From: Escherichia phage vB_EcoM-UFV13
Length of the DNA stretch: 64,000 bases
Direction: 5' to 3' (one strand)
Sequence record: NC_031103.1
Under the pieces are notes generated by a model. The model made no database searches and was not told the origin of the DNA. It saw nothing but the letters and a program-made list of their open reading frames with translations. Below, piece after piece: positions 21,973 through 39,933 of this stretch. The translations under genes were made by a program, and so were the position numbers. Within the stretch, counting starts at the first letter, position 1. Every line of letters starts with the position of its first letter.

Positions 21973-22937
21973 TGTATTCTTTAGAGGAATTTAATAATCA
22001 AGCAATAAACGCAGATTTCCAACGTAATAATATGTTTAGCTGCGTTTTTGCGACAACTCCATCAACTAAAAGCTCTTCGTTGATAAGTTCAATTAGCAAC
22101 TTTTCTTATAATAACTTGGGCCTAAATTCAGATTGGTTAGGATTAACTCAAGGCGATATTAATCAGGGAATTACCACGCTAATTACTGCTGGTACACAAA
22201 AACTAATAAGAAAATCAGGAGTCAGTAAATATCTTATTGGTGCCATGAGTCAACGTACTGTCCAGAGTTTATTAGGCTCATTTACAGTCGGTACATATTT
22301 AATCGATTTCTTTAATATGGCGTATAATTCATCTGGATTGATGATATATTCTGTAAAAATGCCAGAGAATAGATTATCCTATGAAACTGACTGGAACTAT
22401 AATTCTCCTAATATTCGTATAACTGGGAGAGAATTAGACCCTTTGGTTATTTCATTTAGAATGGATTCAGAAGCTTGTAACTATCGTGCAATGCAAGACT
22501 GGGTTAACGCTGTTCAAGACCCAGTAACTGGATTACGTGCTTTGCCACAAGATGTCGAGGCAGATATTCAGGTTAATCTTCATGCTCGTAATGGATTACC
22601 TCATACTGCGGTGATGTTCACCGGATGCATTCCAATATCAGTGAGCGCTCCTGAGTTATCATATGATGGAGATAACCAAATAACTACATTTGACGTTACT
22701 TTTGCGTATAGAGTGATGCAGGCTGGAGCAGTTGATAGGCAAGCTGCGCTTGAATGGCTTGAATCTGCTGCTATAAATGGTATTCAAAGCGTTCTCGGAA
22801 ATAGTGGAGGTGTTACTGGACTATCTAATTCGCTTTCACGACTTAGTAGATTAGGAGGAACTGCAGGAAGCATTTCAAACATTAATACTATGACAGGGAT
22901 TGTCAATTCGCAAAGTAAAATATTAGGAGCAATATAA
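21972..22937 (+). CDS. 54: Baseplate tail tube initiator gp54
   Basis: 321 aa; TAATG overlap with 48. Confidence 0.9.
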   Translation: MYSLEEFNNQAINADFQRNNMFSCVFATTPSTKSSSLISSISNFSYNNLGLNSDWLGLTQGDINQGITTLITAGTQKLIRKSGVSKYLIGAMSQRTVQSLLGSFTVGTYLIDFFNMAYNSSGLMIYSVKMPENRLSYETDWNYNSPNIRITGRELDPLVISFRMDSEACNYRAMQDWVNAVQDPVTGLRALPQDVEADIQVNLHARNGLPHTAVMFTGCIPISVSAPELSYDGDNQITTFDVTFAYRVMQAGAVDRQAALEWLESAAINGIQSVLGNSGGVTGLSNSLSRLSRLGGTAGSISNINTMTGIVNSQSKILGAI

Positions 22938-22940
22938 CAA

Positions 22941-22960
22941 TGGGGACCGAAAGGTCCCCA
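22941..22960. terminator. Bidirectional terminator between gene 54 (+) and the minus-strand early block
   Basis: TGGGGACC-GAAA-GGTCCCCA hairpin with T-runs, between convergent genes. Confidence 0.8.
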
Positions 22961-22965
22961 TATTT

Positions 22966-23256
22966 TTATTTACGGAATGAAATAAAAGCAGCAACTGAAG
23001 CAACTAAACTGTCTTCAATATAAACTTCAATTTTTACCGGAGCTTCTGACTCAAATTTACCTGTTACTACACCTTGAAAAATACTTTCAGTCTGTTCTGG
23101 CTTTGAAAAATTTTCAGAAGGAAAAATTCCGAACTTTTTATCCGTTCCAAAAATTTTGATAAATTCATCGTAAACTGCTTCATTAAAAGCATTATCAGCA
23201 GGAATAACGCCTTCAACTACAAGTTCTTGACCTAAAAAGCGCAAAGAAGATTTCAT
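22966..23256 (-). CDS. Hypothetical protein, 96 aa
   Basis: ATG start with GAGGA SD 7 nt upstream; own early-type promoter; no recognisable domain. Confidence 0.55.
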   Translation of the reverse strand: MKSSLRFLGQELVVEGVIPADNAFNEAVYDEFIKIFGTDKKFGIFPSENFSKPEQTESIFQGVVTGKFESEAPVKIEVYIEDSLVASVAAFISFRK

Positions 23257-23287
23257 TTTGTGTTCCTCATGTTATGTCAGTAAGACT

Positions 23288-23317
23288 ACTATAACACAAC
23301 ATAAGGAACTTGTAAAC
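23288..23317 (-). promoter_or_regulatory. T4 early-type promoter (GTTTACA - 17 nt - TATAGT) inside a conserved leader element, copy 1
   Basis: Minus strand GTTTACA overlapping the alt-paralogue stop, 17-nt spacer, TGTTATAGT; about 90% identical to the element at 38261-38316. Confidence 0.55.
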
Positions 23318-25374
23318 TACATTTTGAACTTTTTAGACATTCCGTTGATGTTAACCAAAGAAGCTAAGATTTGAGAAACTTCGTTTTCCTCTTCTTTTGA
23401 TTCTTCTACAAGGAATTGATTAAATCCAGTCATTGGACGAACTTCACCAGTTTCCATCAGATGGTCGCCATCATATACTGATTCTTCTAATTGTTCAGAA
23501 GGAGGAACGATTGTACCTTCGATTAGATACTTGTTATAAGCAGTTTCTTTCATAAAGTAAGTACTTACTTTATTAATCTTCAGTAAAATTCCACGCGGTA
23601 GAATAACTTCAGCTTCTGATGGAAATCCTGATAAATGACCTGGAACGATAACTTTGATTCGCTCAGCTCCTTTAATTACCATACCCACGCTAGTTTCAGC
23701 ATCTTCATTAGCATATGTAGAATGACTACCCATATGCATTAAATCTTCGGCATCAACGGAACCTTCTCCTTCACCAGAAAATACTGCGCCGGAATCATCT
23801 AGAGCCATATAGTTTTTACCATGCTCACCGAAGATATTTGGTTTAAGCGATGTGGATACGAAGTTCTTGAAATAGAACATTTTATTTTCAATGTTATGAC
23901 GCAAAGTTTTAAAGGTAACTTCTTGTCCACGGTAAAGTGTAGTTCCTGGAGGAAGAACTGATCCTTTGGCAAAGGCAGAATCCAACGTCTCGATGTGCTT
24001 AATAGCTCGTTCCATGTATTCTTCACGGGTAGAATCTGGTTTACCCAAAAGGAACGAGTTCATTTCAACATATGAATCTGCACAATAATCTTCAATTACA
24101 TCAGATTCAGCTTGGGTTAGTCCTTTTGGAGTTACTTCGGTGCTTGCGTATTCATATGCCTGAGCAGCAGATTCATTAATCAATTTATAAATGCCATTCA
24201 TTACAAATTGAATAATAGCTGTCTTTTCATCTGGTGTAGCTTTAGAACCTTTAACTAAATCATTGATAATTTTCTTAATAACATCAAAGCTATTAGAAAT
24301 ATTAATGTCAGCAAGATCACTTAAAATTTTATCAGTTTTATAATCAAAGAATTCTTTATTCTTTAAATATTCTTGAGAACCTTGATATGTTATATCGCTC
24401 TGCAGCTTGATAGATGGATCGCGTAAACGTGCATGGGCCAATGCAATATGATTTCGGAAGCTTTCTAGTTCATAATCGTTAGATTTAAAACGAGAAGCAC
24501 TTCTCATACCACCGATAGCTCCTTTGCTGAAGTTTGAACCAATCTGAATAACGCCAGAGTTCATTGGTCCTTCTGCTTTATATACCGGAACCTTAGATTC
24601 AAACTCTTGATATTTCTTAGCAGCGAAGCTATCACCCTGAAGTGAAGCGTCAACAGTAGAATATTGAGCTTGTGCTGCTAATCGACGACTAATTTTAGTT
24701 TTCTGAATAACAGCTTGGTCAGTACGTTTATCATTTTCTAAAGCAATAGAAGCAGCAACAGCGACAGCTTTAGGAACAGCATTACCTGTTTTAACGTCTA
24801 CATAAACATCACCAACCTTTGATTCAACTTTTGTGAATAACTCAGTTGAAATAGGAGGTACACCTGGAATGTCTTCTAAATTGGCATTTTTACGGTAAAC
24901 CATAATATATGCATATTTCTTATCATAGTCCCAGATTTCCTTTAAGAGAACATATCGACCTGCTCCTTTAGTACGTACTAAACGGTCAGCAATAACTTGC
25001 ATTTGACGAGCAGCGCCATTTGTTTTACTTTTTAGTACGCGGAATAGGCATGCATCAATTTTATACTGCTTCATTGTTTGAAGAGCAGTATCAAAAACAG
25101 CATTAATGACACCAATTGGATTTCCACCCAAGTTTCTAAGCTTAACCAGCGATAATTTCTCGTTGACACCTATCATTACGATATGCATCATTTTATCGCC
25201 TGGCTTAACGTTTTTATTTGTATCACCGCCAGAGGTGTATGTACAAAATCTAAATCCAGGAAGCACACTTTCTTCACCGGCTTGAATAGCAAAAATTTGA
25301 GGTATTTTATGCTTAGGATTTAAGTTAACAACCGGCGCCGAAGCGCCGTCAAATAATTCTGTAATAAGTTCCAT
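23317..25374 (-). CDS. Alt-family ADP-ribosyltransferase paralogue (head-packaged Alt-like protein)
   Basis: 685 aa; N-terminal about 230 aa and C-terminal ART region align with the adjacent Alt; central region diverged. Confidence 0.85.
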   Translation of the reverse strand: MELITELFDGASAPVVNLNPKHKIPQIFAIQAGEESVLPGFRFCTYTSGGDTNKNVKPGDKMMHIVMIGVNEKLSLVKLRNLGGNPIGVINAVFDTALQTMKQYKIDACLFRVLKSKTNGAARQMQVIADRLVRTKGAGRYVLLKEIWDYDKKYAYIMVYRKNANLEDIPGVPPISTELFTKVESKVGDVYVDVKTGNAVPKAVAVAASIALENDKRTDQAVIQKTKISRRLAAQAQYSTVDASLQGDSFAAKKYQEFESKVPVYKAEGPMNSGVIQIGSNFSKGAIGGMRSASRFKSNDYELESFRNHIALAHARLRDPSIKLQSDITYQGSQEYLKNKEFFDYKTDKILSDLADINISNSFDVIKKIINDLVKGSKATPDEKTAIIQFVMNGIYKLINESAAQAYEYASTEVTPKGLTQAESDVIEDYCADSYVEMNSFLLGKPDSTREEYMERAIKHIETLDSAFAKGSVLPPGTTLYRGQEVTFKTLRHNIENKMFYFKNFVSTSLKPNIFGEHGKNYMALDDSGAVFSGEGEGSVDAEDLMHMGSHSTYANEDAETSVGMVIKGAERIKVIVPGHLSGFPSEAEVILPRGILLKINKVSTYFMKETAYNKYLIEGTIVPPSEQLEESVYDGDHLMETGEVRPMTGFNQFLVEESKEEENEVSQILASLVNINGMSKKFKM

Positions 25375-25377
25375 GAT

Positions 25378-27474
25378 TTATCCTTGAACGAACTTGTAAG
25401 GCATGTTTGTAATATCTATGCAAGACGCAATAATTCCAAGAGATGATTCTACTTTCTGTTTAACATTTGATGAAACAAATGATGCAAAGTCAACTCTGTC
25501 TTCTACTTCAATATCACCTGTCATTGCAACTACTTCACCGGTTTCCATTAAATGGTCTCCGTCATAGATTACCGATTCGGTGAGCTCTTCCGTAGTCATA
25601 ACTTCAGCTTGAATGAGTTTTGTATTATTAGATGTTGTTCCGTCATTATTAGAAGCATCAGTTATTTTATTAACTTTGACCATCAATCCGCGCGGTAGAA
25701 TAACTTCAGCTTCTGTTGCTATTCCGAGACTTCCTGGATATACAACATTAACTTTATGAGCTCCATCAATTGCCCATCCTATTTGAACTTTAACGTATTC
25801 AGGATTTTCTTTATACGCTCTTATTTCGTTTGGATTAATAGTTATTCCTTCTTCATTTTTATCAACTGTTAATTCATTGCGAGCTTCTGGTTCTAAAAGA
25901 CCAATACCAGCATGTGTAATTCCAAAACGTCCAAAAATGATAGGAGTTAAAGAAGTAGATACAAAATTTCTGAAATAGAACACTTTATTTTTAACTAGTG
26001 CTTCGTATATAGGAGCAGTCATACTTTGAGCACGATAAACTGTAATGCCTTCCGGTATGCGGTCACCATTTTCAAAAGCTGAATCTAAATTATTTATAGC
26101 AGATTCAATTTCTTTTTCACTCATTACATCATATCGTTCTGGATTGTAACGACCTAAAAGAAGATTATTAATGTCTGTATATCCTGAACCACAATATTCT
26201 CTAATACCTCGCTTTTGTGATGGAGTATATTTAGAACCATCACGGGCGATAGTAATATCAATCATTGGACCAGCGCCAATTCCGGAAAAGCTATAAATCA
26301 TTCGTTTGAGGAATTTAGTTTTTGCCGCATTCCAGGCATTTTTAGTTATTTCTCCCCAGACTTCATCTGACTGCCCTTTACGAGTTTTATTATGTTTATC
26401 AAGCCAATTATCTTTGTATTCTTCAAAGAATTTATTAACAGCTGCTGCGTATTTCTCTAAACATTTTATTGAAGTAGTTGGTTCATTTTTGATTGCGTTA
26501 AAAATTACATCTTTAATTTTTTCTGAAACTTCATCAACCTCACTTTTTGAAAAGAATTTATAGTCATAGTGAAGTTCATTCGCAGTTCCTTCGGCAATAA
26601 TTTTTGCTGCCTTAGTTTTAGAAGCTAATGAATTAATTCCAAGCTTCATTTCTTCTGCTTCGGGAATTAAAGGAGCGGTAGCAGGTTTATTGAAATTAGC
26701 TGCGGTAGATTCATACTTCTGGAATAATTCACTTTCAAATCTAGAAGATTCCAATGATTGACTTTGCGCAATTGCTCTACGGGAAATTTTAACTTTAACG
26801 ATTACAGCTTGGTCAGAACGCTTATCATTTTCTTGCGCAATAGATGCTGCAATTGCCTCATTTTTAGTTACTTGGGCTCCAGTATCTTTATTGATATAAA
26901 CATCACCGACCTTCGATTCAACTTTAGTAAAGAGCTCGGTACTAATTTCCGGAACTCCTGGAATGTCTTCTAGCGATACATTTTTGCGATGTATAAGAAT
27001 ATATGCATACTTTTTATCGTAATCCCAGAGTTCCTTAAGAAGGACGTATCTGCCACCTGAACGACTACGGATAAGTCTATCAGCAATAACTTGAATTTGT
27101 CGAGCTTGACCAGCAGTTTTAGACTTAAGAATACGAAGCATACAAGCATCAATTTTATATTGACGCATAGTTTGCATTGCAACAGTAAAAACTGAATTGA
27201 TATAATTAATTGGGCTTGGACCAAGACCTTTTAATTTAGCAATTGAACCTTTAGCAGTTAATGTAAAAGGAACAATATGCATCATTTTATCGCCCATCTT
27301 TAAATCGCGATTAGTATCACCTCCAGATGTATAGGTACATAAACGAAAGCCTGGTTGTTCAATTGCATCATCAACATGAACTGAAAAAATTTGTGGTATT
27401 TTCTTCTTTGGATTTAAGTTTGTAATCGGAAGAGTAGTATCTTCGTCAAATAATTCTGTAATAAGTTCCATCAT
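25378..27474 (-). CDS. alt: Alt ADP-ribosyltransferase
   Basis: 698 aa; N-terminus MELITELFDEDTTLPITNL and C-terminus IASCIDITNMPYKFVQG recalled as T4 Alt; ART motifs (YRxQ-like, STSL, EAEVILPRG). Confidence 0.9.
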   Translation of the reverse strand: MMELITELFDEDTTLPITNLNPKKKIPQIFSVHVDDAIEQPGFRLCTYTSGGDTNRDLKMGDKMMHIVPFTLTAKGSIAKLKGLGPSPINYINSVFTVAMQTMRQYKIDACMLRILKSKTAGQARQIQVIADRLIRSRSGGRYVLLKELWDYDKKYAYILIHRKNVSLEDIPGVPEISTELFTKVESKVGDVYINKDTGAQVTKNEAIAASIAQENDKRSDQAVIVKVKISRRAIAQSQSLESSRFESELFQKYESTAANFNKPATAPLIPEAEEMKLGINSLASKTKAAKIIAEGTANELHYDYKFFSKSEVDEVSEKIKDVIFNAIKNEPTTSIKCLEKYAAAVNKFFEEYKDNWLDKHNKTRKGQSDEVWGEITKNAWNAAKTKFLKRMIYSFSGIGAGPMIDITIARDGSKYTPSQKRGIREYCGSGYTDINNLLLGRYNPERYDVMSEKEIESAINNLDSAFENGDRIPEGITVYRAQSMTAPIYEALVKNKVFYFRNFVSTSLTPIIFGRFGITHAGIGLLEPEARNELTVDKNEEGITINPNEIRAYKENPEYVKVQIGWAIDGAHKVNVVYPGSLGIATEAEVILPRGLMVKVNKITDASNNDGTTSNNTKLIQAEVMTTEELTESVIYDGDHLMETGEVVAMTGDIEVEDRVDFASFVSSNVKQKVESSLGIIASCIDITNMPYKFVQG

Positions 27475-27494
27475 AGCCTCTCTAGTGTTTATTC

Positions 27495-27502
27495 TATTTA
27501 TA
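27495..27502 (-). promoter_or_regulatory. T4-type late promoter for the alt tandem (TATAAATA on the minus strand)
   Basis: TATTTATA on the + strand, 21 nt upstream of the alt ATG; Alt is a late, head-packaged protein in T4. Confidence 0.6.
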
Positions 27503-27507
27503 AAATT

Positions 27508-27525
27508 AAAGGCCCGAAGGCCTTT
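27508..27525 (-). terminator. Stem-loop (AAAGGCC-CGAA-GGCCTTT) overlapping the stop of the 62-aa ORF
   Basis: Palindromic 7-bp stem with tetraloop between the ligase operon and the alt late promoter. Confidence 0.55.
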
Positions 27526-27712
27526 AGTAATCTAGTGGTAAGAGAGTACGATATATTTCAAACTTTGGTCCTTTTTCATAGGCATCAAATGTTTCTGTAA
27601 ATTTATTATAAGCGTATGCATCTACAAATTCGAGAATGACTTGTGATACAGAAGTAGAAACATCTCCACCTTCTTTTTGAGCAATGACAATTGTTTCTAA
27701 GTAAGCTTTCAT
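27524..27712 (-). CDS. Hypothetical protein, 62 aa, translationally coupled to DNA ligase
   Basis: ATG overlaps the ligase stop (ATGA). Confidence 0.5.
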   Translation of the reverse strand: MKAYLETIVIAQKEGGDVSTSVSQVILEFVDAYAYNKFTETFDAYEKGPKFEIYRTLLPLDY

Positions 27713-29172
27713 AGACCAGTTACCTCATGAAAATCGCCAAATACATCTTCGAACGTATTAGCTTTAGTTTTATCTTCGCGTAAACGAATCGCAATTGGAA
27801 GAAATAATTTAACGTAATCAGTGCGGCCATCAGATTTTAACCAACCGTTGCATTCGCACTCTAGAATTTTTCCAATATAATAATTTTGGTTTTCCATAAT
27901 GCGAGTACGGTCAAGTTCATGCGATTTTACGCCGGCTTTATCTTTTAAGCCTGAACCAGCATTTACTTTAATTTTTCCACACTCTGACTCAAGAATAAAT
28001 CCACCTGCTTTAGTAGGGTCTTTACGGTGAGGATAAATTCCTACAATTTTTAAATCAACATCAATTACTTCTTTAAATTTATAAAGATTTTTTGAACGAG
28101 CATTTTCCCATAATCCATCGATATTTTTGAGAATAATACCTTCAAGACCTTGGTCAATATACTTTTTATAAATTACCTTAGCTTCATCTAGGTTATTTAC
28201 TACCTGGTTTTCAATTAAAATTACTTTATCATAACCTGATGTCATTTGTTCTAGTTTAGAAAAACGTACATCATATTTCAAACGAAATGCAGGAAGACCG
28301 TATATTTCTACCAACGGGACATAATCCCAGACCTGAAACTTCATGCATTGAGCTTCTTTTTCAGAAATGGTTCCCTTTAAAGATTTATTAGCGATTCCAT
28401 TAGAAGCAGTACGTGATTCAGCTACTTCGGCGAATTCTTTAGCTTTACTAATTTCAGGATAAGCATCAAAAAGAAAATCTAGGCCTTCTGGCTCCTTTTT
28501 AACTTGCTCATGGTATACCAATTCGCCATCAATTAACACACCTTCTGGATGAATCTGGCGGGCTTCAGCGGTCATTTTGATTAACTCTTCTTTGAGAAGG
28601 TCTAATCCTAGATATTCATTACCAGCTCGTGATAAAAGACGAACATCATCTAATTCATCACCTCTGACTTCAGCAAAGCACCGAGCCCCATCAGCTTTTA
28701 ACTGGGCAAAGGCTGGAAATTTGATATTCTTATTAATGCCTTTTTCATCATAAGAACTTGCCAGCATTTGAGGTTGTTCAGGAATTAAACCTGGCCAAAC
28801 TTTGTTTGCAATAGATACTGAAGCACCGCATTCAAGGTCTCGCATCATCACCCGACGCAAAACTTCAACATCATCTTTTTTACCGTCAGTAATATATCCA
28901 GTTAATTCCTCAATTGCCGCATTTCCAGTCAATTTCCGAGTAGCTAACGTGAATTCAATGAAGTCGAGCATATCGGTAAGAGTCAACATTCCAAAACTCT
29001 GGGTAGCAATACCCGGTTTAGGCCATTTCTTGATATAATACTGTAACCCACGAGAATAAGTCAGACGATATACTCGTTTAAGCAATTCATTATCTTTATT
29101 CTTTTCAAGAATTGCTTGCTTCTGCTTAGTTGAACCAATAGATGCTATTTCGTTCAGAATTTTAAGAATCAT
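27709..29172 (-). CDS. 30: ATP-dependent DNA ligase gp30
   Basis: 487 aa as in T4 DNA ligase; N-terminus MILKILNEIASIGSTKQKQAILEKNKDNELLKRVY recalled as T4 ligase; adenylation lysine motif region. Confidence 0.96.
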   Translation of the reverse strand: MILKILNEIASIGSTKQKQAILEKNKDNELLKRVYRLTYSRGLQYYIKKWPKPGIATQSFGMLTLTDMLDFIEFTLATRKLTGNAAIEELTGYITDGKKDDVEVLRRVMMRDLECGASVSIANKVWPGLIPEQPQMLASSYDEKGINKNIKFPAFAQLKADGARCFAEVRGDELDDVRLLSRAGNEYLGLDLLKEELIKMTAEARQIHPEGVLIDGELVYHEQVKKEPEGLDFLFDAYPEISKAKEFAEVAESRTASNGIANKSLKGTISEKEAQCMKFQVWDYVPLVEIYGLPAFRLKYDVRFSKLEQMTSGYDKVILIENQVVNNLDEAKVIYKKYIDQGLEGIILKNIDGLWENARSKNLYKFKEVIDVDLKIVGIYPHRKDPTKAGGFILESECGKIKVNAGSGLKDKAGVKSHELDRTRIMENQNYYIGKILECECNGWLKSDGRTDYVKLFLPIAIRLREDKTKANTFEDVFGDFHEVTGL

Positions 29173-29438
29173 TGTTCATCCTTTAGAGTTTGGTTTACAG
29201 CTCTATTATAAATCAATTCATCATTAAGCTCAGTCAAAGACCTGTGGTATGTGGTTCTAACTTTATTTCCTTGCATCCAGTGCTTGACGTAAATGAAACC
29301 TTGCTCTACACATTTTTTAAAAATTCGTTCGTCTTTTTGAGCTCGGAATTCTGGATTGCATCTAAAAAATTGATTTACGTGACCGTAATCACGTGTAGTA
29401 TTACCTTCATTTTCATAAATAGTGTGAACGACAAACAT
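29169..29438 (-). CDS. Hypothetical protein, 89 aa (T4 30.1 position)
   Basis: ATG start; stop overlaps the ligase start (ATGA). Confidence 0.55.
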   Translation of the reverse strand: MFVVHTIYENEGNTTRDYGHVNQFFRCNPEFRAQKDERIFKKCVEQGFIYVKHWMQGNKVRTTYHRSLTELNDELIYNRAVNQTLKDEQ

Positions 29439-30277
29439 TAGAATGCTCCTTGGAAAATATTATCACCACTAGTAGGTCTATTATACAAATACTCTATGCC
29501 ACCAGGTTTAATATAGTTCCATGTCTGAAACGGATGTGTCTGATATGGATGATATAGATGATTATAAGGATTAAATCCAGGAGTTCTCCAGGTAGTGTTC
29601 CAAGGAAAAGAATCGTTTTTGATCATCTTCTCAATTACATCTTTTATAACTTTTTCACTATCAAAACTTTCTTTATTTTCCTTCGATGGAAAAAGCTTAT
29701 TCTCTACATCATTCCATGTATAAACTCGCTGTGCAGTTTTTGGAATACTGTCACGCTCTCCTCGAGCCATCCAATAAACAGGAACACTTAATATTTCACT
29801 CGCATGATCGCAGTGGTGAGCGAGATCGTCAATATAACAAATTACGTTATATTTCTCTTTTGCCTTTTTGAACAACTCTTCTTTTGAAGAATCATGACCA
29901 CACATCAATACTTCTGAGAAGGCACCAGGAAAAAGAGCATTCAAATTAAATTGACGATTCAGCAGAGCGTCAATAGAATCACCCAGTGCTGTAACAGCTA
30001 CAAAATTATAATCTTCTTTTAATTTGTTAATTACACACAGGGCATCTTTATATGGCGACAAGTAACGAATAAAATCTGAACGATTGTATTTTTCAATTAG
30101 CTTAACGCCAAGTTCTTCATCACAATTAAAAAGTTTACCAGGAGAAATAAATTTCTCATCCTGGATCATTTTTAAAATATGTTCTAACGGAAGATTATAT
30201 TTCTGAGCAAAATAAGGAAGGCCTGATTGCCAGCTTAAACATACACCATCAATATCAGTCAAAATAGTAGGCTTCAT
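29438..30277 (-). CDS. HAD-superfamily hydrolase-like protein (T4 30.2 position)
   Basis: 279 aa; N-terminal LTDIDGV matches HAD motif I (DxDG[TV]); His-rich C-terminus. Confidence 0.6.
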   Translation of the reverse strand: MKPTILTDIDGVCLSWQSGLPYFAQKYNLPLEHILKMIQDEKFISPGKLFNCDEELGVKLIEKYNRSDFIRYLSPYKDALCVINKLKEDYNFVAVTALGDSIDALLNRQFNLNALFPGAFSEVLMCGHDSSKEELFKKAKEKYNVICYIDDLAHHCDHASEILSVPVYWMARGERDSIPKTAQRVYTWNDVENKLFPSKENKESFDSEKVIKDVIEKMIKNDSFPWNTTWRTPGFNPYNHLYHPYQTHPFQTWNYIKPGGIEYLYNRPTSGDNIFQGAF

Positions 30278-30732
30278 AGAGAGTCTCTTAATAGGTTTAA
30301 CACATCAATAAATTCAGCTTCGGTTAGTATTGTATCATCTTTTGTTAGACCACTAGCCATGCTGTGCTTCAAAACTTTTCCTTTCGAGGCTAGTAATGCA
30401 TCACGAAAGCCCTTGTTTTGGATCGCTGCTTCAAAATATGCATTTGTGTATAATTCTTTCCACGCTGGGGAGTATCTTGAAAACGGAACTCCCAGCCAGA
30501 AGAGGGTCCCACGGTCCTGAGCTCTTGCATAAGACCTTCCAGCTTGTTGGGCGGCCAATCCGGAGAGCCTAAATATACGTTTTTGTTGTTCAACATTTTT
30601 CACCTTGCATCCTTGGAGGAATCCTTCAAGACCTCCAAATTGGATACCATCCATAACAAAAGGCCATTGGGCGAAATTACTTAATGCGCATGATGGCCAT
30701 CTAAAATTACTTCTTATCTCTAACTCAGACAT
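30274..30732 (-). CDS. NADAR (YbiA/DUF1768)-like protein (T4 30.3 position)
   Basis: 152 aa; segment LSNFAQWPFVMDG...F mirrors the E. coli YbiA signature FSNFAAWPIKVDG...W as I recall it. Confidence 0.55.
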   Translation of the reverse strand: MSELEIRSNFRWPSCALSNFAQWPFVMDGIQFGGLEGFLQGCKVKNVEQQKRIFRLSGLAAQQAGRSYARAQDRGTLFWLGVPFSRYSPAWKELYTNAYFEAAIQNKGFRDALLASKGKVLKHSMASGLTKDDTILTEAEFIDVLNLLRDSL

Positions 30733-30940
30733 CTTTAATACTTATAATTTCAACATCAGCCCAATGACCATAACTTGGCAGACGGTCTTCAATAGATAAT
30801 CCGCCATCATATTTAAGCATTTTAATTGTCATAATATATGGCTCTAAATGGTCTTCTGTGAGCGGAGAAACGTCAGTCACACGATAAGTAACTTCAACCA
30901 TTTCCGTACCTAATAATTTCTGAATTAATTTCTTAAACAT
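30725..30940 (-). CDS. Hypothetical protein, 71 aa
   Basis: ORF in operon series. Confidence 0.45.
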   Translation of the reverse strand: MFKKLIQKLLGTEMVEVTYRVTDVSPLTEDHLEPYIMTIKMLKYDGGLSIEDRLPSYGHWADVEIISIKDV

Positions 30941-30944
30941 ATTA

Positions 30945-31232
30945 TCAGAACCTCATCTGAAAACCGTGTGATTTAACATTACCGCCACCAATATCAGAGA
31001 TATTAATTTCGCGCGCAATTGAAGGGTCAATGTCAATTTCATGATTAAGTTTAGTGATAGCTAAAGTATCACGCCCATTTACTGTACGGAATTCTAAAGG
31101 ACAAACCACATCAACGTAATTTTTAATCGATTCACTTGTAGGTTGCAAATGTACAGGAAGGTCTTTGGGCGCCTTTGAGAAAACAACTTCACAGAAATTT
31201 TTGCGGGTGTCAAAATAAGTAGTCATAAACAT
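30945..31232 (-). CDS. Hypothetical protein, 95 aa
   Basis: ATG start, GAGGA SD. Confidence 0.5.
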   Translation of the reverse strand: MFMTTYFDTRKNFCEVVFSKAPKDLPVHLQPTSESIKNYVDVVCPLEFRTVNGRDTLAITKLNHEIDIDPSIAREINISDIGGGNVKSHGFQMRF

Positions 31233-31248
31233 AATGTTTTCCTCAGTA

Positions 31249-31264
31249 AGGGGCCGAAGCCCCT
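31249..31264 (-). other. Intercistronic stem-loop (GGGGC-CGAA-GCCCC)
   Basis: Perfect GC hairpin between two minus-strand ORFs, followed by an SD rather than a U-tract. Confidence 0.5.
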
Positions 31265-31273
31265 CATTTTATT

Positions 31274-31639
31274 TTAAATATCAAATTCGTTAAGAACTAC
31301 ATCAAAGATTGCTTCAAGATGCTCAGGTTTAGCTCTGTTACTCAGAATATGACGAATCCAAGTTTTAACAAGAAGCTTGCGATTAACGCCATTCCAGCAA
31401 GGATGAGTACCTAAATCACGTTGACGAAAATCATCATCCAGAGCGATTTTAAAGTTGGAACCTTCCATCGTGATTGAAACCGTGATACCGTTTTCAAATC
31501 GCATATAAACGTAGTTAGGAGTCATATACTGCTCAATTTCGCATACTGATCCATTTTGATGTTTCCAAAGGCAAATAGTATCAATAGAACCTGCAATACC
31601 ATTAGAAACATATTTACGTTCAAAGTTAATGTAGTTCAT
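31274..31639 (-). CDS. Hypothetical protein, 121 aa
   Basis: ATG at 31639 with GGAG SD; the track start at 31651 is TTG. Confidence 0.5.
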   Translation of the reverse strand: MNYINFERKYVSNGIAGSIDTICLWKHQNGSVCEIEQYMTPNYVYMRFENGITVSITMEGSNFKIALDDDFRQRDLGTHPCWNGVNRKLLVKTWIRHILSNRAKPEHLEAIFDVVLNEFDI

Positions 31640-31664
31640 TTTATTCTCCAAGATGTTTAATTGT

Positions 31665-31704
31665 GGTACAGGTGTATAATATCATATCCTGTACCAAAGT
31701 AAAC
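31665..31704 (-). promoter_or_regulatory. Early-type promoter (GTTTAC - 16 nt - TGATATTAT) with the -10 inside a hairpin loop
   Basis: GTAAAC at 31699-31704 (+), -10 at 31676-31681; inverted repeat GGTACAGG/CCTGTACC at 31665-31672 and 31688-31695. Confidence 0.55.
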
Positions 31705-31706
31705 AA

Positions 31707-32039
31707 TTATTTTACTACTTTCCAATGCTTCATGTCAAGTTTACCAACTTTTTTCATCTTCTCAATTAAGCGTTCGGCACGTTGGCGAGCTGTAACATAA
31801 TACCATTCACCTAATTCATTTTGTTCAATTTTTCCAACGATTACTGTATTCAATTCATAAATCCAACCAGTAAAGAAATTATGAACTTGAATTGTAAAGG
31901 TGAAATCTGTTCCCATACCTTCTGTTGTTTCTACTTCAATAATATCACCTTCAACTGCCATTAAGAACCACATAGTTTCATCATATGCACCGTTGAAGCA
32001 TTTAGTTTTAACAGCAGCGTTCAGATTAATCGTTTTCAT
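31707..32039 (-). CDS. Hypothetical protein, 110 aa
   Basis: ATG start with AAGGAG SD. Confidence 0.5.
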   Translation of the reverse strand: MKTINLNAAVKTKCFNGAYDETMWFLMAVEGDIIEVETTEGMGTDFTFTIQVHNFFTGWIYELNTVIVGKIEQNELGEWYYVTARQRAERLIEKMKKVGKLDMKHWKVVK

Positions 32040-32066
32040 TTTATTCTCCTTTGTTTGTGTAAGATA

Positions 32067-32096
32067 ATACTATCACAAAGGAACCATACTGTAAAC
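32067..32096 (-). promoter_or_regulatory. Early-type promoter (GTTTACA - 17 nt - TAGTAT)
   Basis: GTAAAC at 32091-32096 (+), TGTGATAGTAT -10 region. Confidence 0.5.
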
Positions 32097-32125
32097 AACT
32101 TTATGCAATCTTTGGAAAATAAAAA

Positions 32126-32145
32126 AGGACTCCCGAAGGAGTCCT
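32126..32145 (-). terminator. Intrinsic terminator (AGGACTC-CCGAAG-GAGTCCT then U-run) after the small basic ORF
   Basis: Perfect 7-bp stem, followed on the minus strand by TTTTTTATTTTCC. Confidence 0.7.
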
Positions 32146-32149
32146 CAAC

Positions 32150-32326
32150 TTATGCTTTCTGCTTACCAAAACGAGAAGCATCATCTCGAAGAACCGCACG
32201 TGCTCGGCGCATGATCTTCTCAACAGTTTGATTGATACGAGAGTTCGACCCACGCTTGTAGCCAGCGCGTTTAGAATCACCAACTTTCTTTTCAACTGCT
32301 TTCTTTGCTTTAACTTGTTTTGCCAT
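32150..32326 (-). CDS. Small basic protein, 58 aa (MAKQVKAKKAVEKK...)
   Basis: Internal ATG at 32326 preferred over the longer track ORF; lysine/arginine-rich. Confidence 0.4.
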   Translation of the reverse strand: MAKQVKAKKAVEKKVGDSKRAGYKRGSNSRINQTVEKIMRRARAVLRDDASRFGKQKA

Positions 32327-32446
32327 TATAAATTCTCTTTTAAATGAAAATGCAGGACTTATTGGCATTGCCTGCGCAAGCCCTCAAAGGGGTACTTAGG
32401 TTTTGAATATTTACCGACAGGATAACCATAAACCTCGTCAACATAA

Positions 32447-32695
32447 TTACTTCAATGTTACCACAAAGTGACGAACTGCTTTTCGTGCAGCAGAAGCCAG
32501 AGGCTTAGCATATTTAAGTTCATCTTTTTCCTGAAGCTCAGCAGCTAATGCAGTTTGAGCAGGATTTAGATGTTTGAAATAACGCAGGATTTCAAGAGCT
32601 TCGGCTTCAACATCAATAGATGCGCCATAGTTTTCGTGACCATTATTCCATGCGTTTCGTTGCAGTTCAAGAGCGTGTTGTAATTGTTTAATCAT
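32447..32695 (-). CDS. rIII: rIII lysis-inhibition accessory protein
   Basis: 82 aa as in T4 rIII; immediately downstream of gene 31 as in T4. Confidence 0.7.
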   Translation of the reverse strand: MIKQLQHALELQRNAWNNGHENYGASIDVEAEALEILRYFKHLNPAQTALAAELQEKDELKYAKPLASAARKAVRHFVVTLK

Positions 32696-32834
32696 TTAAA
32701 AATTCTCGTTAGAGATTAAAACTCGGTAGTCACGTTCTTCTGAATTTCATCTTCTTTCGACAGATCTCTCAGTTGTAGACTACCACATAGAATTGTTCGG
32801 TTAACTTATTATTCCGACACCCAATTCATATTAT

Positions 32835-32842
32835 TATTTATA
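32835..32842 (-). promoter_or_regulatory. Late-promoter motif (TATAAATA on the minus strand) at the gene 31 stop, facing rIII
   Basis: TATTTATA on the + strand adjoining the gene 31 stop. Confidence 0.4.
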
Positions 32843-33178
32843 TCACTTATAAAGACACGGAATAGCTTTATAGTGACAAGTAACGAATTTTTGTTTAATT
32901 TCTTTTGGTTGCTTAAGACCCAGAGCTACAAAAGGATGCGGAACATTTCGAATTTGACCAACTGGAAGAGAAGTCAAATCACCAACTTCGCAGAAACCTT
33001 CAGGAACATCAGGACCAACAGAGTGAACTACACACAGTTCAGGAACTTCACCTTGAACACGTTTACCGATAATAAGTCCTGATTCTGTAACTTCTTCATC
33101 ACCGGCTTGTGCAGGTTCAGAAACTAAAATAACATATTCACCGACAGCACGAATTGGTAGCTGTTGTACTTCAGACAT
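32843..33178 (-). CDS. 31: Co-chaperonin gp31 (GroES analogue)
   Basis: 111 aa as in T4 gp31; position between rIII and cd. Confidence 0.88.
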
Positions 33179-33208
33179 CGTTTTTCCTTTTTGTTAACAG
33201 ATGAATTA

Positions 33209-33233
33209 ATAATAACAAATAATTCTTAAAGCA
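33209..33233 (-). promoter_or_regulatory. MotA-dependent middle promoter for gene 31
   Basis: Minus strand TGCTTTA (MotA box) - 12 nt - TATTAT, about 30 nt upstream of the gene 31 ATG. Confidence 0.6.
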
Positions 33234-33234
33234 T

Positions 33235-33543
33235 TTATTTACCAATAAATTGGAGTAAATGCTCAACTTTCATACCATTAACAGAAATCAATTTGTCAAT
33301 AGAAAAACCTCGCCACGCACCAAGTTCAACATCAAATACTGGAATCATGTCAGTAGATTCTTTCCGAGTAGATTCAGTCAATTTACCGGTTTGCATAGTT
33401 GGCATAAAGTCTGCATCACGAGTACCTTTCATGGTACGAATAGTACCATCAGACTTTTCAAAAACTACGTTTGAAACACCCATGGACAATTTAGTTTTCA
33501 AAATTTCACGAATTGCTACTTTCTGCTCAGTTGTCAGTTTCAT
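33235..33543 (-). CDS. Hypothetical protein (T4 31.1 position)
   Basis: 102-aa ORF. Confidence 0.55.
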   Translation of the reverse strand: MKLTTEQKVAIREILKTKLSMGVSNVVFEKSDGTIRTMKGTRDADFMPTMQTGKLTESTRKESTDMIPVFDVELGAWRGFSIDKLISVNGMKVEHLLQFIGK

Positions 33544-33780
33544 TTATTTACCTATCACAGTTTTAATATGAGTTGTTCCACGTTCTTTAAGGGTGGAAAG
33601 TAATTTTTGGCATTTTTCTAAATCAGATTTCCAACTATATGGTCTATCAATACTAGTCCAATCAGTTTTATAATACTGTTTCCATTTAGAGAAAAAATAT
33701 TTCTTATACTCTACAGCAAATGAGATGTTCTCGTTAGAATAAGAACTAATTGCTGTGAGCTTTACCAAACGAAATTTCAT
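33544..33780 (-). CDS. Hypothetical protein (T4 31.2 position)
   Basis: 78-aa ORF; stop abuts the 31.1-position start. Confidence 0.5.
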   Translation of the reverse strand: MKFRLVKLTAISSYSNENISFAVEYKKYFFSKWKQYYKTDWTSIDRPYSWKSDLEKCQKLLSTLKERGTTHIKTVIGK

Positions 33781-34361
33781 TATTCACCACAGAATTCGTT
33801 GATATTTTCCCAGTTTAACTTATTCAAGTTTTTCTTAGGAACATTAAACACTTCAATACCTGCATTTCGCAGAATATCATCCCAACCAGGTTTATTTTTG
33901 TCGTATGTTTCACAATAAACCAGCTTTTTAATACCAGATTGAGCTATTGCTTTTGCACAATCTGGACAGGGAGAAAGTGTTACATACATAGTAGCACCTT
34001 CAATAGAAGAACCATTTCGTGCAGCAAACAAAATTGCATTTAGTTCAGCATGAATTTCATTTTTAGACGACCATTCAGAGTGAGCGCTGCGGTGTTCTTT
34101 CGCCAAGACAAAACGATCAGTTGAACCAAATGATACGCATTCAGGCTTATGACCTTGAATGATAGTATGTTTAGGCTTATTCAACAACCAACCTTGCTCA
34201 GCAGCATAATCACAGCAGTTCACACCCCCTGCGGGTGAACCATTATACCCAGTAGAAATAATACGTCCATTCTTTTCAATTACTGCTCCTACCTTCCAGG
34301 AGCAACATTTTGATTCTTGTGATACTAAATATGCAATTTGAAGTACTGTACTCGCTTTCAT
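33780..34361 (-). CDS. cd: dCMP deaminase
   Basis: 193 aa as in T4 Cd; zinc-binding deaminase motifs (HAE...PCxxC). Confidence 0.95.
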   Translation of the reverse strand: MKASTVLQIAYLVSQESKCCSWKVGAVIEKNGRIISTGYNGSPAGGVNCCDYAAEQGWLLNKPKHTIIQGHKPECVSFGSTDRFVLAKEHRSAHSEWSSKNEIHAELNAILFAARNGSSIEGATMYVTLSPCPDCAKAIAQSGIKKLVYCETYDKNKPGWDDILRNAGIEVFNVPKKNLNKLNWENINEFCGE

Positions 34362-34696
34362 TTCATAATCACCAGATAAGCAGATTTAGCAGTTTCAACA
34401 CGATAAATTTCGTGACGAAGTTTAGTTATACTTTTAATAACAGAACTAATTATATTCTGCCCATCTTTAAAGCGGTTTTTCTTATCAATAAAAACTGCGC
34501 CAACCATCTTTTTGTGAAGCTCAACTGGATACTTCGTCACAATAATAGCATCATACACAGAAGGATGAATACTATTCACTAGAGTATCATTCATTAAAGT
34601 TATTCTAATGAACTGTGCTGTTTCAGAGTCAAGCGCTCTATGATCGCCAGTATCATTTTCAAGACAATTATCAATTATATCAGTTAAATTCATCAT
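34358..34696 (-). CDS. Hypothetical protein (cd.1 position)
   Basis: 112-aa ORF overlapping the cd start by 4 nt. Confidence 0.5.
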   Translation of the reverse strand: MMNLTDIIDNCLENDTGDHRALDSETAQFIRITLMNDTLVNSIHPSVYDAIIVTKYPVELHKKMVGAVFIDKKNRFKDGQNIISSVIKSITKLRHEIYRVETAKSAYLVIMK

Positions 34697-34932
34697 AGTA
34701 CGCCATACACCCTTTGTGCTTCAACTAATCCATCAAAATCTAATTTAAGATGCGATATTTGGTCACCATCACCTGGATTCACAATTACTAATACTGAACG
34801 AGGAGTTTCGGTAATAACACGAACCGATGTTTCAGGAAATCGTTCAGAAACCTTATTTACCAATTCCTGAGCAAATAGTTTAACTTTTTCTTGGAATTCT
34901 TTAACAGTAATTGGTTTTTCACTTAGCAGCAT
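34693..34932 (-). CDS. Hypothetical protein (cd.2 position)
   Basis: 79 aa, ATG start with GAGGA SD. Confidence 0.5.
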   Translation of the reverse strand: MLLSEKPITVKEFQEKVKLFAQELVNKVSERFPETSVRVITETPRSVLVIVNPGDGDQISHLKLDFDGLVEAQRVYGVL

Positions 34933-34952
34933 TTTGTTTTCCTCATTTGTTT

Positions 34953-34991
34953 GGTAGAGCTATAATATCACAACTCTACCGTAAAGTAAAC
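34953..34991 (-). promoter_or_regulatory. Early-type promoter (GTTTAC - 17 nt - TGTGATATTAT) with the -10 inside a hairpin loop
   Basis: GTAAAC at 34986-34991 (+), -10 at 34962-34967; inverted repeat GGTAGAG/CTCTACC at 34953-34959 and 34974-34980. Confidence 0.55.
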
Positions 34992-34993
34992 TA

Positions 34994-35269
34994 TTAAATC
35001 GCTTTGAATTCCGCAGTTTGAGATTCAAAGCGAATGTCGCCTTTGATGACTAGCTCAGCATCAAGACCGAATACAACAATGATATGCGCGGAACCTGGAT
35101 ACAGCGTAATGGCAACAGAATCCACCTGGTCTGGAAGCAAAGTGTTCAATACATGAGTCACTTGAGCATGGATTCGAAGTTCAGCTGCATTATCAAGCTT
35201 TTCAAACATATTATTAGCGATAATTTGACTAAACACTACTTCTACGATTTTAGAATAAGTCGGAAACAT
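34994..35269 (-). CDS. Hypothetical protein (cd.3 position)
   Basis: 91-aa ORF. Confidence 0.5.
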   Translation of the reverse strand: MFPTYSKIVEVVFSQIIANNMFEKLDNAAELRIHAQVTHVLNTLLPDQVDSVAITLYPGSAHIIVVFGLDAELVIKGDIRFESQTAEFKAI

Positions 35270-35271
35270 AT

Positions 35272-35464
35272 TTACCTCACATAATTTTCTTCAAGCCAAT
35301 CAATAACATCCAAAGCGTTATCAAAAATTGAACCATCTACTTTGTCTTCTGTTTCATAATCAAGAACATCTAAGCCTACTCTTCCGTCAACAATAGGCCA
35401 TAGACAAAATAGATATTTCTTTTCTTTTTCAATTTTATCACAAAGACGATAAATCTTTTCTAGA

Positions 35465-35472
<8 letters not shown>
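35272..35472 (-). CDS. Hypothetical protein (cd.4 position)
   Basis: 66-aa ORF. Confidence 0.45.
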
Positions 35473-36883
<1,411 letters not shown>

Positions 36884-36887
<4 letters not shown>

Positions 36888-37120
36888 TTATTTTTCTCAA
36901 CTAATGATTGAATATAATCATGCAGCTCTTTAGATGCTTTACCCCACTTATTTTGATATTCATTTTTAAGATTAGCACGTGATTGAGCTAATAAAACATC
37001 ATTAGTTGGAGGTAAAGATTCTAACCGTTGAATCTGGCGTCCATAAATCATTGCAGCCATCTCGGATTCATAAATCAATCCTTTGAGATGTTCAAATTGA
37101 TGCCATGAAATCATTTGCAT
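36884..37120 (-). CDS. Hypothetical protein, 78 aa
   Basis: ORF in series. Confidence 0.45.
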
Positions 37121-37410: not shown

Positions 37411-37760
37411 TTAGAAAGGTCCTGGATGTCTTCTGCGAACTTGTTGAAGGAGTTGTTGATTTGTTTTTCAACCAATCCTGGCTTATGAGCCACCACATCC
37501 GCCTTCTTTGCGTCTTTGCGCAGTTTTTCATTTTCACGCTCAATAGCAGCAATTGCCTCACGATTTTTATTATTCATCGCATCAATATAATTATACTGAA
37601 TTCGCAAATTATTTAATGCTAAAGCGTTTTCATTGGCCGTTTTTGTAATTTCTACAACAGACGTTTCTAATCTTTCAATTTTATTTTTTAAAATTAAAGA
37701 AGTTCCGCCCAATGCAATTACAATTAATAGCAAGCCTGCTGTCGTATTACTTAATTGCAT
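37407..37760 (-). CDS. Inner-membrane spanin (i-spanin; T4 PseT.3-type)
   Basis: 117 aa; N-terminal TM helix LLLIVIALGGTSLIL followed by a coiled-coil periplasmic domain. Confidence 0.65.
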   Translation of the reverse strand: MQLSNTTAGLLLIVIALGGTSLILKNKIERLETSVVEITKTANENALALNNLRIQYNYIDAMNNKNREAIAAIERENEKLRKDAKKADVVAHKPGLVEKQINNSFNKFAEDIQDLSK

Positions 37761-38254
37761 AAAGTTTTAATAACCTCTATAATATCGTCTTGAGAAAGAC
37801 CGTTAATTAAAATATGATGTTCAGCAGGAGATTTAGAAATTTTAAAGCATGCCTCAACATCTTCTGCCATATCTGATGCGCTACGATTTGGATTACTAAT
37901 TCCAAGACGATGTTTTCCCGTCAAAGGATTAACGATGATATAGCATTTACAGTTGTTAATATGAACATTAGGTTGAGTCTGATTAATGAACACATCACAA
38001 TCATATTTCGCAAGCTGATTTTCTAAAAAGACTTTCATCTCCTCAACTGCATCAGGAAGCATATCACGGGCTTGCTCAAGACGACGATTTCGATATTCTT
38101 TAATGGTCGTTTTCCGCTTGACTTGCTTAGCTAAATCTTTCTTAAGATCGGTGATATATCCAACTCGACGATTTCCTTTAAATACAGAAATCCCATCTGT
38201 AGTATCACCGTATGCTTCAACGACCATTTCAGTAGTAATAAGCTGTAAATCCAT
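37751..38254 (-). CDS. alc: Alc (host transcription shut-off)
   Basis: 167 aa from the second ATG, as in T4 Alc; position between spanins and rnlA. Confidence 0.8.
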   Translation of the reverse strand: MDLQLITTEMVVEAYGDTTDGISVFKGNRRVGYITDLKKDLAKQVKRKTTIKEYRNRRLEQARDMLPDAVEEMKVFLENQLAKYDCDVFINQTQPNVHINNCKCYIIVNPLTGKHRLGISNPNRSASDMAEDVEACFKISKSPAEHHILINGLSQDDIIEVIKTLCN

Positions 38255-38260
38255 CATAAA

Positions 38261-38316
38261 GTCCTCATGTTATGTCAGTAAGACTACTGTAACACAACAC
38301 GAGGGACTTGTAAACA
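38261..38316 (-). promoter_or_regulatory. Early-type promoter (GTTTACA - 17 nt - TACAGT) plus conserved leader, copy 2, upstream of alc
   Basis: About 90% identical to 23262-23316; GTAAAC at 38310-38315 (+); the leader carries the GAGGA SD. Confidence 0.55.
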
Positions 38317-38318
38317 GC

Positions 38319-39906
<1,588 letters not shown>

Positions 39907-39913
39907 AATAAAA

Positions 39914-39927
39914 TGGGCCTTGCGGCC
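39914..39927 (-). terminator. Terminator after nrdB (GGGCC-GCAA-GGCCC then U-run, minus strand)
   Basis: Perfect GC hairpin 7 nt after the nrdB stop, followed by ATTTTATTATG. Confidence 0.65.
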
Positions 39928-39933
39928 CACTCC

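Follow-up and report, generated by a model that had tools for sequence, protein, structure and literature searches.

In the 64,000-nucleotide (nt) stretch of Escherichia phage vB_EcoM-UFV13 that we analysed (sequence record NC_031103.1; the whole stretch is referred to below as the window), the minus strand carries nearly the same 54-nt cassette twice, once in front of alt.-3 (copy A) and once, 15 kb away, in front of alc, the gene for an inhibitor of host transcription (copy B). Each copy appears to be an early promoter lying inside a long hairpin that works as a transcript-specific translational gate, a reading to which we give a probability of about 60%. The Shine-Dalgarno (SD) sequence of the downstream gene is predicted to be free on messenger RNA (mRNA) begun at the cassette's own promoter and buried on RNA that enters the cassette from upstream.

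The two copies agree at 50 of their 54 positions (93%; coordinates in Table 1) and are identical over the 27 nt from just past the -10 element through the SD (AGTAGTCTTACTGACATAACATGAGGA). Copy A fills the space between the stop codon of an alt paralog (685 aa, 23317..25374) and a 96-aa open reading frame (ORF), which is alt.-3, and copy B the space between rnlA/gp63 (38319..39479) and alc. When the copies are aligned with 100 nt of flank on each side, the likeness begins at GTTTAC and stops at GAGGA, and as the flanks are unrelated the repeat is not a piece of a larger duplication. An earlier note on this DNA had described a near-identical element at 23262-23316 and 38261-38316, downstream of alt and upstream of alc, with an early-type promoter on the minus strand and a leader whose end is the SD for the gene that follows (the 96-aa ORF or alc). 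Motifs, ORF positions and SD all bear this out, the coordinates being correct to within 1-2 nt, and the larger duplication that the note had named as an alternative is excluded.

There is no third copy of the 54-mer in the window at up to 3 mismatches, and 100 dinucleotide-preserving shuffles gave 0 matches. An old segmental duplication was also considered and rejected. It had been raised because two repeat families share a spacing of 14998 nt: the 54-mer pair (family D8, 23264/38262) and family D10 (32090/47088, the upstream halves of two other early promoters). Nothing else on the diagonal is similar, identity there being 0.274 and the background 0.271 +/- 0.004. In other genomes the pair is spaced differently (13243 in T4; 15126, 15462 and 15308 in three other phages), and we treat the equal spacing of the two families as a coincidence.

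The window phage belongs to Tequatrovirus and shares 98-99.8% identity with T6, Shfl2 and similar phages. T4 (AF158101) carries both copies as well, before alt.-3 and before alc, with a single-base difference. A blastn search of the 54-mer against 50,697 phage records found it in 498 records at 995 places, that is, two per Tequatrovirus genome, and in no other genus. The search for further copies that the earlier note had proposed, in this genome and its relatives, thus always returns two, at the same two loci and in Tequatrovirus only. Conservation of the element inside the genus proves little, because Tequatrovirus genomes are 95-99% identical overall.

Both copies show the T4 early-promoter pattern: GTTTAC at -36 to -31 (numbering after PMC1524935), a 17-nt spacer and a TGn-extended -10, with TGT directly before TATAGT in copy A and before TACAGT in copy B. 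Such early promoters have been described as the 'UP/-35/TGn/-10' class (PMC2988021), and predicted (early) promoters are already annotated at exactly both positions in some GenBank records. The UP-like region reads AAAAAGTTCAAAATGTA above the -35 of copy A and GGATACTAAGCT, which is not A-rich, above that of copy B, both lying in the coding end of the upstream gene. Leaders counted from the predicted +1 would measure 22-25 nt. Time-course omics of T4 class alc and alt.-3 as early RNA and early protein (PMC9697503 supplement), alt as late, and rnlA as early RNA and late protein (PMC9697503). The T4 middle-promoter list (PMC2988021, Table 1) has no entry at either site, and a literature search for T4 start-site maps and for the names Pe136 and Pe123 found nothing relevant.

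The promoter and SD described in the earlier note are supported. What the note overlooked is that the element folds as one long hairpin, in which spacer and -10 pair with leader and SD. This hairpin is the most informative feature of the element and alters its functional reading. When the sense strand is folded it spans nearly the whole repeat in both copies, with energies of -25.7 kcal/mol (z-score -4.67) in copy A and -28.6 kcal/mol (z-score -4.98) in copy B, and 0 of 200 dinucleotide-preserving shuffles were as stable in either case; the hairpins of the T4 copies reach -23.0 and -24.7 kcal/mol. The 5' arm is made of the promoter spacer and the -10 (AAGUCCCUCGUGUUGUGUUAUAGUA, about -30 to -6), the GUCU loop falls at -5 to -2, and the 3' arm is made of the leader and SD (UACUGACAUAACAUGAGGAC), with the GAGG of the SD pairing with CCUU (copy A) or CCUC. 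By geometry the predicted +1 sits at the beginning of the 3' arm (its second base), and RNA from the cassette's own promoter would therefore be without the 5' arm. On RNA with 30 nt of upstream sequence the predicted pairing probability of the SD is 1.00 in both copies, while RNAs that start some 3 nt before the predicted +1 are essentially unstructured (-0.8 and -1.8 kcal/mol, z-score about 0). The antisense folds are about 10 kcal/mol weaker (-15.7 versus -25.7 for copy A, -17.9 versus -28.6 for copy B) because several of the pairs are G.U, and this strand asymmetry points to a structure favoured on the mRNA strand.

Other identities for the hairpin were considered. That of an intrinsic terminator is rejected by sequence criteria: no U tract follows either stem (the following sequences are ACACAAAAUG and CUUUAUGAUG, with tails ACACAAAA and CTTTATGA), and a scan of 22000-40000 that returned 14 terminator-like sites includes neither cassette hairpin among them. 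Rfam 15 at gathering threshold gave 0 matches in the whole window; below threshold there were only minus-strand matches to miRNA-precursor-like or generic long precursor hairpins (E 0.6-9). Control by RegB or RegA was considered and set aside. The SD is GAGGA, with no GGAG site of the kind that RegB cleaves (PMC3014915), and nothing specific supports RegA.

From these features and the comparisons below we infer start sites, read-through transcription and a translational block, along with a direction of copying between the two loci. As DNA, the cassette is an imperfect inverted repeat that begins just past the -35, extends as far as the SD and has its centre a few bases before the predicted start. 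mRNA from the cassette's own promoter would begin in the 3' arm, leaving the SD of alc or alt.-3 free, and would be translated immediately after infection. Transcripts entering from upstream, namely late alt mRNA at copy A and mRNA of rnlA and genes above it at copy B, would hold both arms; on such read-through RNA the hairpin would form, CCUC or CCUU would pair with GAGG, and translation of alc or alt.-3 would be blocked. Synthesis of Alc and Alt.-3 would thereby be restricted to the time when the early promoters fire. The alc version would be old, and the alt.-3 version a later Tequatrovirus copy, partly homogenised by gene conversion. For copy A the late read-through would probably come from a late-promoter motif (TATAAATA) upstream of the tandem alt genes, and from this motif (27495-27502) to copy A the scan called no minus-strand terminator-like site.

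The argument for a structure under selection rests on comparison across genera. Homologs of Alc occur in 1135 phage records, and the rnlA-alc junction is syntenic across many genera. We compared the region upstream of alc in eleven phages from outside Tequatrovirus. The same design, with other arm sequences, is present in six of the eleven rnlA-alc spacers, those of Gelderlandvirus (Melville), Karamvirus, Klebsiella phage Lion_ER11, Bragavirus, Dhakavirus (QL01) and Winklervirus. In all of these GTTTACA is directly followed by an anti-SD arm, the -10 lies in the loop or upper stem and the SD lies inside the 3' arm (arm pairs such as AUCUCCGUUU/AAACGGAGAU and ACCUCUCAUUUUU/AAAAUGAGAGGUU). The z-scores of these hairpins, in six genera other than Tequatrovirus, range from -2.6 to -6.5. 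In place of column-wise covariation we used arm-by-arm duplex energies and a permutation test. For the seven genera, the mean energy of 5' with 3' arm is -21.0 kcal/mol when both come from the same genome and -10.9 kcal/mol when they come from different genomes, and the observed energy sum is reached by 1 of 5040 permutations, the true assignment alone. The arms therefore co-evolve.

Within Tequatrovirus, variants were drawn from both loci in nine phages (the window phage, T4, four from IMG/VR and three from GenBank) and from one locus in four more. A pattern scan of IMG/VR had yielded 8 loci in 4 phages; since a population test needs more, GenBank genomes were sampled instead. Twelve of the 54 cassette positions vary in this sample. 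Six variants keep or improve a pair: C15-G50 becomes U.G and then U-A, G16.U49 becomes A-U, U27.G40 becomes C-G or U-A, and C11 to U gains a pair with an A specific to alt.-3.

Several observations weigh against a translational gate. Four of the other Tequatrovirus variants break a pair (G18A, T19A, G29A and G40T) and two fall in the loop; with such a split, within-genus support for structural selection is weak. Sequestration of the alc SD is absent, or stops short of the SD, in five of the eleven phages compared (Mosigvirus, Providencia phage PSTCR6, VR7, Ac42 and phiAS4), so the alc gate is widespread yet dispensable. The stems in the other genera are near-perfect palindromes without strand asymmetry, which makes a role at the DNA level possible there. 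Aligning nine cassettes of seven genera with MAFFT and folding the alignment with RNAalifold yielded neither a consensus structure nor column-wise covariation; because the stems are out of register (the offset of the anti-SD arm after the -35 varies), we count this null as a failed method and not as evidence contradicting the structure. On the short alt.-3 transcript the SD pairs weakly with codons 3-5 (-2.2 kcal/mol). The start site and the block are predictions from geometry and folding, and no reason is apparent for barring later synthesis of Alc or Alt.-3.

The cassette also seems to have moved. Homologs of Alt.-3 occur in 835 records, and in Gaprivervirus, Dhakavirus, Mosigvirus, Marfavirus and Karamvirus the spacer between alt and alt.-3 holds a different cassette, here called type II: GTTTACA, then a spacer with a short internal hairpin (such as GCACaaggaaGTGC), then TACTAT and a leader with ACATGAGGA at its end. 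No significant long structure was found in the type II alt.-3 cassettes of these five genera. Among the records compared, then, the long-hairpin cassette (type I) at alt.-3 is specific to Tequatrovirus, where the simplest explanation is that the phage's own alc cassette was copied there; the alt.-3 copy looks like the derived one because alt.-3 elsewhere carries another cassette. The joints of the transplanted cassette lie in motifs common to types I and II, GTTTACAA on the 5' side and ATGAGGA on the 3' side. The earlier suggestion of a portable expression cassette thus gains comparative support from the different cassette found at alt.-3 in other genera. A transfer in the reverse direction, of type II to alc, may have taken place in Mosigvirus, whose alc cassette carries the type II spacer hairpin and is 75-78% identical to most type II alt.-3 cassettes (its own genome's included), 69-71% to those of Gaprivervirus and Marfavirus, and 54-70% to the alc cassettes of other genera. 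Since early promoters in general already show a background identity of 60-70%, this second case is no more than suggestive.

Once present at both loci, the two Tequatrovirus cassettes may have continued to exchange sequence. The derived alleles A16, C27, A29, A32 and T34 are common to both loci. The linked changes G29A and G32A make the consensus TATAAT out of TATAGT; UFV10 has them at both loci, phage P8 at alt.-3 only. For the first four of the shared positions, P lies between 0.0003 and 0.013 by a rough Poisson estimate. These shared polymorphisms suggest gene conversion between the copies; parallel selection, for instance for a better -10, is an alternative explanation for some of the alleles. 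The 15-kb interval between the copies is annotated in close relatives with DNA ligase and the gene 31 co-chaperonin, both of which are essential in T4, and reciprocal deletion between the copies should therefore be lethal. Of the recombination or deletion that the earlier note had thought possible, the shared alleles support recombination in a non-reciprocal form; gene conversion is the realistic outcome and viable deletion is unlikely.

The most serious competitor to the gate is that the two copies are ordinary PeSL (promoter-early stem-loop) cassettes, made up of early promoter, stem-loop and SD, in which the stem-loop would be a terminator or attenuator insulating alc and alt.-3 from transcription further upstream, the sequence would serve in evolution mainly as a short homology patch for modular shuffling, and the pairing of the SD would be incidental. 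Stem-loops over the -10 are a common subclass of PeSLs, and one RB49 PeSL stem-loop lowered expression of a downstream lacZ like a strong terminator (PMC2839356); PeSLs with the pattern TTTACW-N17-TAYWAT have been reported for the PST/T4 pair (PMC4122927). Other early promoters in the window have stem-loops round the -10 that stop short of the SD, in PeSL style, and the cassette swapping and shared polymorphisms described above would fit recombination at such elements. We nevertheless think this explanation unlikely. The terminator scan calls real terminators nearby and passes over both U-less cassette hairpins; a terminator would not need a 3' arm covering the SD and a 5' arm with CCUC or CUCC, as found in seven genera; and the PeSL papers leave translation unconsidered.

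Less probable still is that the duplex of about 22 bp is an element of RNA processing or stability, such as an RNase III site or a 3' protective hairpin, which would cut or cap the alt and rnlA mRNAs at the gene boundary and thereby set the half-lives of messages upstream or downstream. On the sense strand the stem is a mostly unbroken duplex of roughly two helical turns, it lies exactly at the border of genes differing in temporal class, and the sub-threshold Rfam matches are all to generic long precursor hairpins. There is no sequence evidence specific to RNase III, however, and the stems of other genera measure only 9-15 bp, shorter than a typical RNase III substrate, yet keep the pairing of SD and anti-SD. 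The part of the T4 post-transcriptional review available to us (PMC3014915) makes no mention of processing sites of this kind. We regard as equally improbable that the inverted repeat acts on DNA, as the site of a dimeric protein or as a cruciform or melting aid tuning the promoter, or that the copies are merely a recent neutral duplication of a good promoter. The near-perfect palindromic arms of other genera, equally stable on both strands, would suit a DNA element, as would a symmetry centre (-5 to -2) in the region melted in the open complex, and a neutral duplication would sit well with a genus too uniform for conservation to be informative. The Tequatrovirus hairpin, though, uses G.U pairs that weaken its antisense form, and neutral duplication leaves the exact boundaries at the -35 and SD unexplained. 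A protein site would keep its sequence and not mere complementarity, whereas the arms co-vary across genera with the SD always included. That seven genera conserve the complementarity between spacer and SD, and not the sequence, is the strongest point against all three of these explanations.

A third early promoter of the window (32025-32100, minus strand), before a 110-aa ORF that resembles 30.8 (31707..32039), consists of GTTTACA, 17 nt and TAGTAT, and its spacer holds an anti-SD (UUCCUUUGUG) that pairs with the SD of its own leader (CAAAGGAG; -18.6 kcal/mol, z-score -3.97). The predicted pairing probability of this SD is 0.99 on read-through RNA and 0.01 on RNA from its own start. As this is the same design in unrelated sequence, such a device may occur more widely in the early regions of T4. 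Put together, the observations allow a broader proposal that we advance tentatively, as slightly more doubtful than an even bet: an ancient early-promoter gate, the mirror of known late-gene gates, would limit Alc, and in Tequatrovirus also Alt.-3, to the immediate-early window, its arms co-varying in at least seven genera of Straboviridae; the module would have been copied between alc and alt.-3 in both directions (type I reaching alt.-3 in Tequatrovirus and type II reaching alc in Mosigvirus), gene conversion would keep the copies alike, and the 30.8-like case would hint at a general, undescribed layer of temporal control.

Table 1. Features of the two cassettes and their surroundings (positions in the window unless T4 is named)
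Feature	Position	Strand	Remark
Copy A (alt.-3 copy), from G of GTTTAC to GAGGA	23264..23317	-	alt stop TAG overlaps first base
Copy A -35 hexamer TTTACA (GTTTAC at -36..-31)	23311..23316	-	
Copy A extended -10, TGT-TATAGT	23288..23296	-	
Copy A predicted transcription start, A of CTTACTG	23281	-	placed by geometry, 7 nt past the T at -7
Copy A RNA hairpin	23262..23309	-	17-bp lower stem (3 G.U), 2-nt bulge, 4-bp apical stem, GUCU loop
Copy A SD, GAGGA	23264..23268	-	alt.-3 start codon 23254-23256
alt.-3, 96 aa, served by copy A	22966..23256	-	T4 alt.-3
Copy B (alc copy) of the 54-nt cassette	38262..38315	-	
Copy B -35 hexamer TTTACA	38309..38314	-	
Copy B extended -10, TGT-TACAGT	38286..38294	-	
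Copy B predicted transcription start	38279	-	same geometry as copy A
Copy B RNA hairpin	38259..38309	-	6 bp, 1-nt bulge, 11 bp, 2-nt bulge, 5-bp apical stem, GUCU loop; SD fully paired
Copy B SD, GAGGA	38262..38266	-	alc ATG 38255-38257 or, per T4 annotation, 38252-38254
alc, inhibitor of host transcription, served by copy B	37751..38257	-	
Predicted start equivalents in T4 (AF158101)	123057 and 136300	-	
Late-promoter motif TATAAATA upstream of the tandem alt genes	27495..27502	-	likely late read-through source for copy A
Bidirectional terminator-like hairpin ending the alt.-3 unit	22940..22961	.	perfect 9-bp G+C-rich stem, T runs on both strands

Some features of the surroundings deserve mention in their own right. 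The window has two full-length tandem alt paralogs on the minus strand, 23317-25374 (685 aa) and 25378-27474 (698 aa), which appear as repeat families D1, D4, D6, D7 and D13 with a spacing of about 2094-2103. The locus is variable: T4 retains only remnants of the downstream paralog (alt.-1 and alt.-2), and the 3' end of its alt remnant still has the same junction with the cassette (AAAAGTTCAAAATGTA). At the other end of the unit, the terminator-like hairpin at 22940-22961 separates the convergent gene 54 and alt.-3. In both copies of the cassette the ATG in cATGAGGA opens a mini-ORF of 4-5 codons (23254-23270 and 38255-38268, minus strand; MRNTK* and MRTL*), without an SD of its own, whose TGA stop overlaps, as ATGA, with the start codon of alt.-3 or alc; the same layout occurs, among other genera, in the Winklervirus alc cassette and the Gaprivervirus type II alt.-3 cassette. 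At the minus-strand GTTTAC promoters at 46383, 34990 and 31703, inverted repeats of 8-14 bp enclose the -10 and leave the SD outside. Between rnlA and alc, Gaprivervirus VR7 has an additional ORF of 77 aa with an alc-like annotation (160-393 of the fetched region), which takes the place of the promoter-hairpin spacer present in other genera. In Mosigvirus records alc is annotated from the rnlA stop (187 aa; 341-904 of the fetched regions), with a start 60 nt upstream of the ATG that follows the SD and aligns with other Alc proteins, and the start call has probably been over-extended through the promoter cassette.

If the gate is real, it adds a device of temporal control for Alc, an important host-takeover protein, and gives PeSL-type stem-loops a translational role besides termination. 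It would also be a natural case of a whole control module (promoter, 5' untranslated region, SD and gate) moved between loci and then homogenised. RNA-seq coverage reading through alc and alt.-3 would be untranslated, which bears on the timing of the T4 transcriptome and proteome, and the gate would be relevant to any engineering of alt.-3 or alc, as in anti-defence studies (escape from CmdTAC runs through alt.-3; PMC11618068).

The repeat itself, its reading as a promoter and the notion of a promoter cassette that is portable and recombinogenic are already known, from T4 early promoters, from PeSLs and from annotations. As far as we have checked, and older T4 compilations apart, three things have not been described before: a predicted SD-sequestering hairpin at alc with an early promoter inside it and arms that co-vary across genera, the apparent transplantation of the full module to alt.-3 in Tequatrovirus, and the apparent exchange of sequence between the copies. 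Ordinary T4 early promoters (PMC2988021, PMC1524935) resemble the pair in having GTTTAC at -36 to -31, a 17-nt spacer, TGn, a TAnnnT -10 and a site before early genes. They share these consensus positions only, whereas our two copies match through the spacer and the 5' untranslated region as well and differ from each other in the UP-element region.

PeSL cassettes (Arbiol et al. 2010, PMC2839356; Comeau et al. 2014, PMC4122927), a class already described and including the Tequatrovirus PST/T4 pair, are closer: they too join an intergenic sigma-70-type early promoter with an overlapping stem-loop and an SD and start, and by structure both copies are PeSLs, with early promoter, stem-loop, SD and start codon in a short intergenic element. 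For PeSLs, recombination and gene shuffling through such short homology patches have been proposed, and here there are signs of exchange and of cassette swaps between loci. PeSLs lie preferentially in hyperplastic regions beside variable ORFs; of our two loci, that of alt.-3 is variable, and that of alc is at the widely syntenic rnlA-alc junction. The stem is much longer here, however (21-22 bp), reaching from just after the -35 to the SD so as to occlude the ribosome-binding site, and no U tract follows it. Our two copies are alike at nearly every position of the full cassette, while PeSLs share consensus motifs only, and they lie 15 kb apart beside conserved genes (alc and alt) with essential genes between them. 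PeSL stem-loops have been interpreted as terminators or attenuators, with translation not discussed (PMC2839356, PMC4122927).

In its logic the cassette comes nearest to T4 genes e, soc, 49 and I-TevI, where a late promoter is embedded in the DNA for the 5' strand of a helix that sequesters the ribosome-binding site (PMC3014915). In those cases the SD, the AUG or both are buried on long transcripts, transcripts from the internal promoter are without the 5' arm and are translated, and similar structures are kept in related phages. In those genes the internal promoter is late (TATAAATA) and the gate stops early expression of late functions; in our cassettes, neither of which contains TATAAATA, it is an early sigma-70 promoter. 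With the class of promoter reversed the temporal logic is reversed too, early translation being allowed and that of later read-through RNA blocked. Neither alc nor alt.-3 is in the list of gates of this type in the part of the T4 post-transcriptional review available to us (PMC3014915), and the cassette, as modelled here, works like the e, soc, 49 and I-TevI family but as a variant and not as a standard member.

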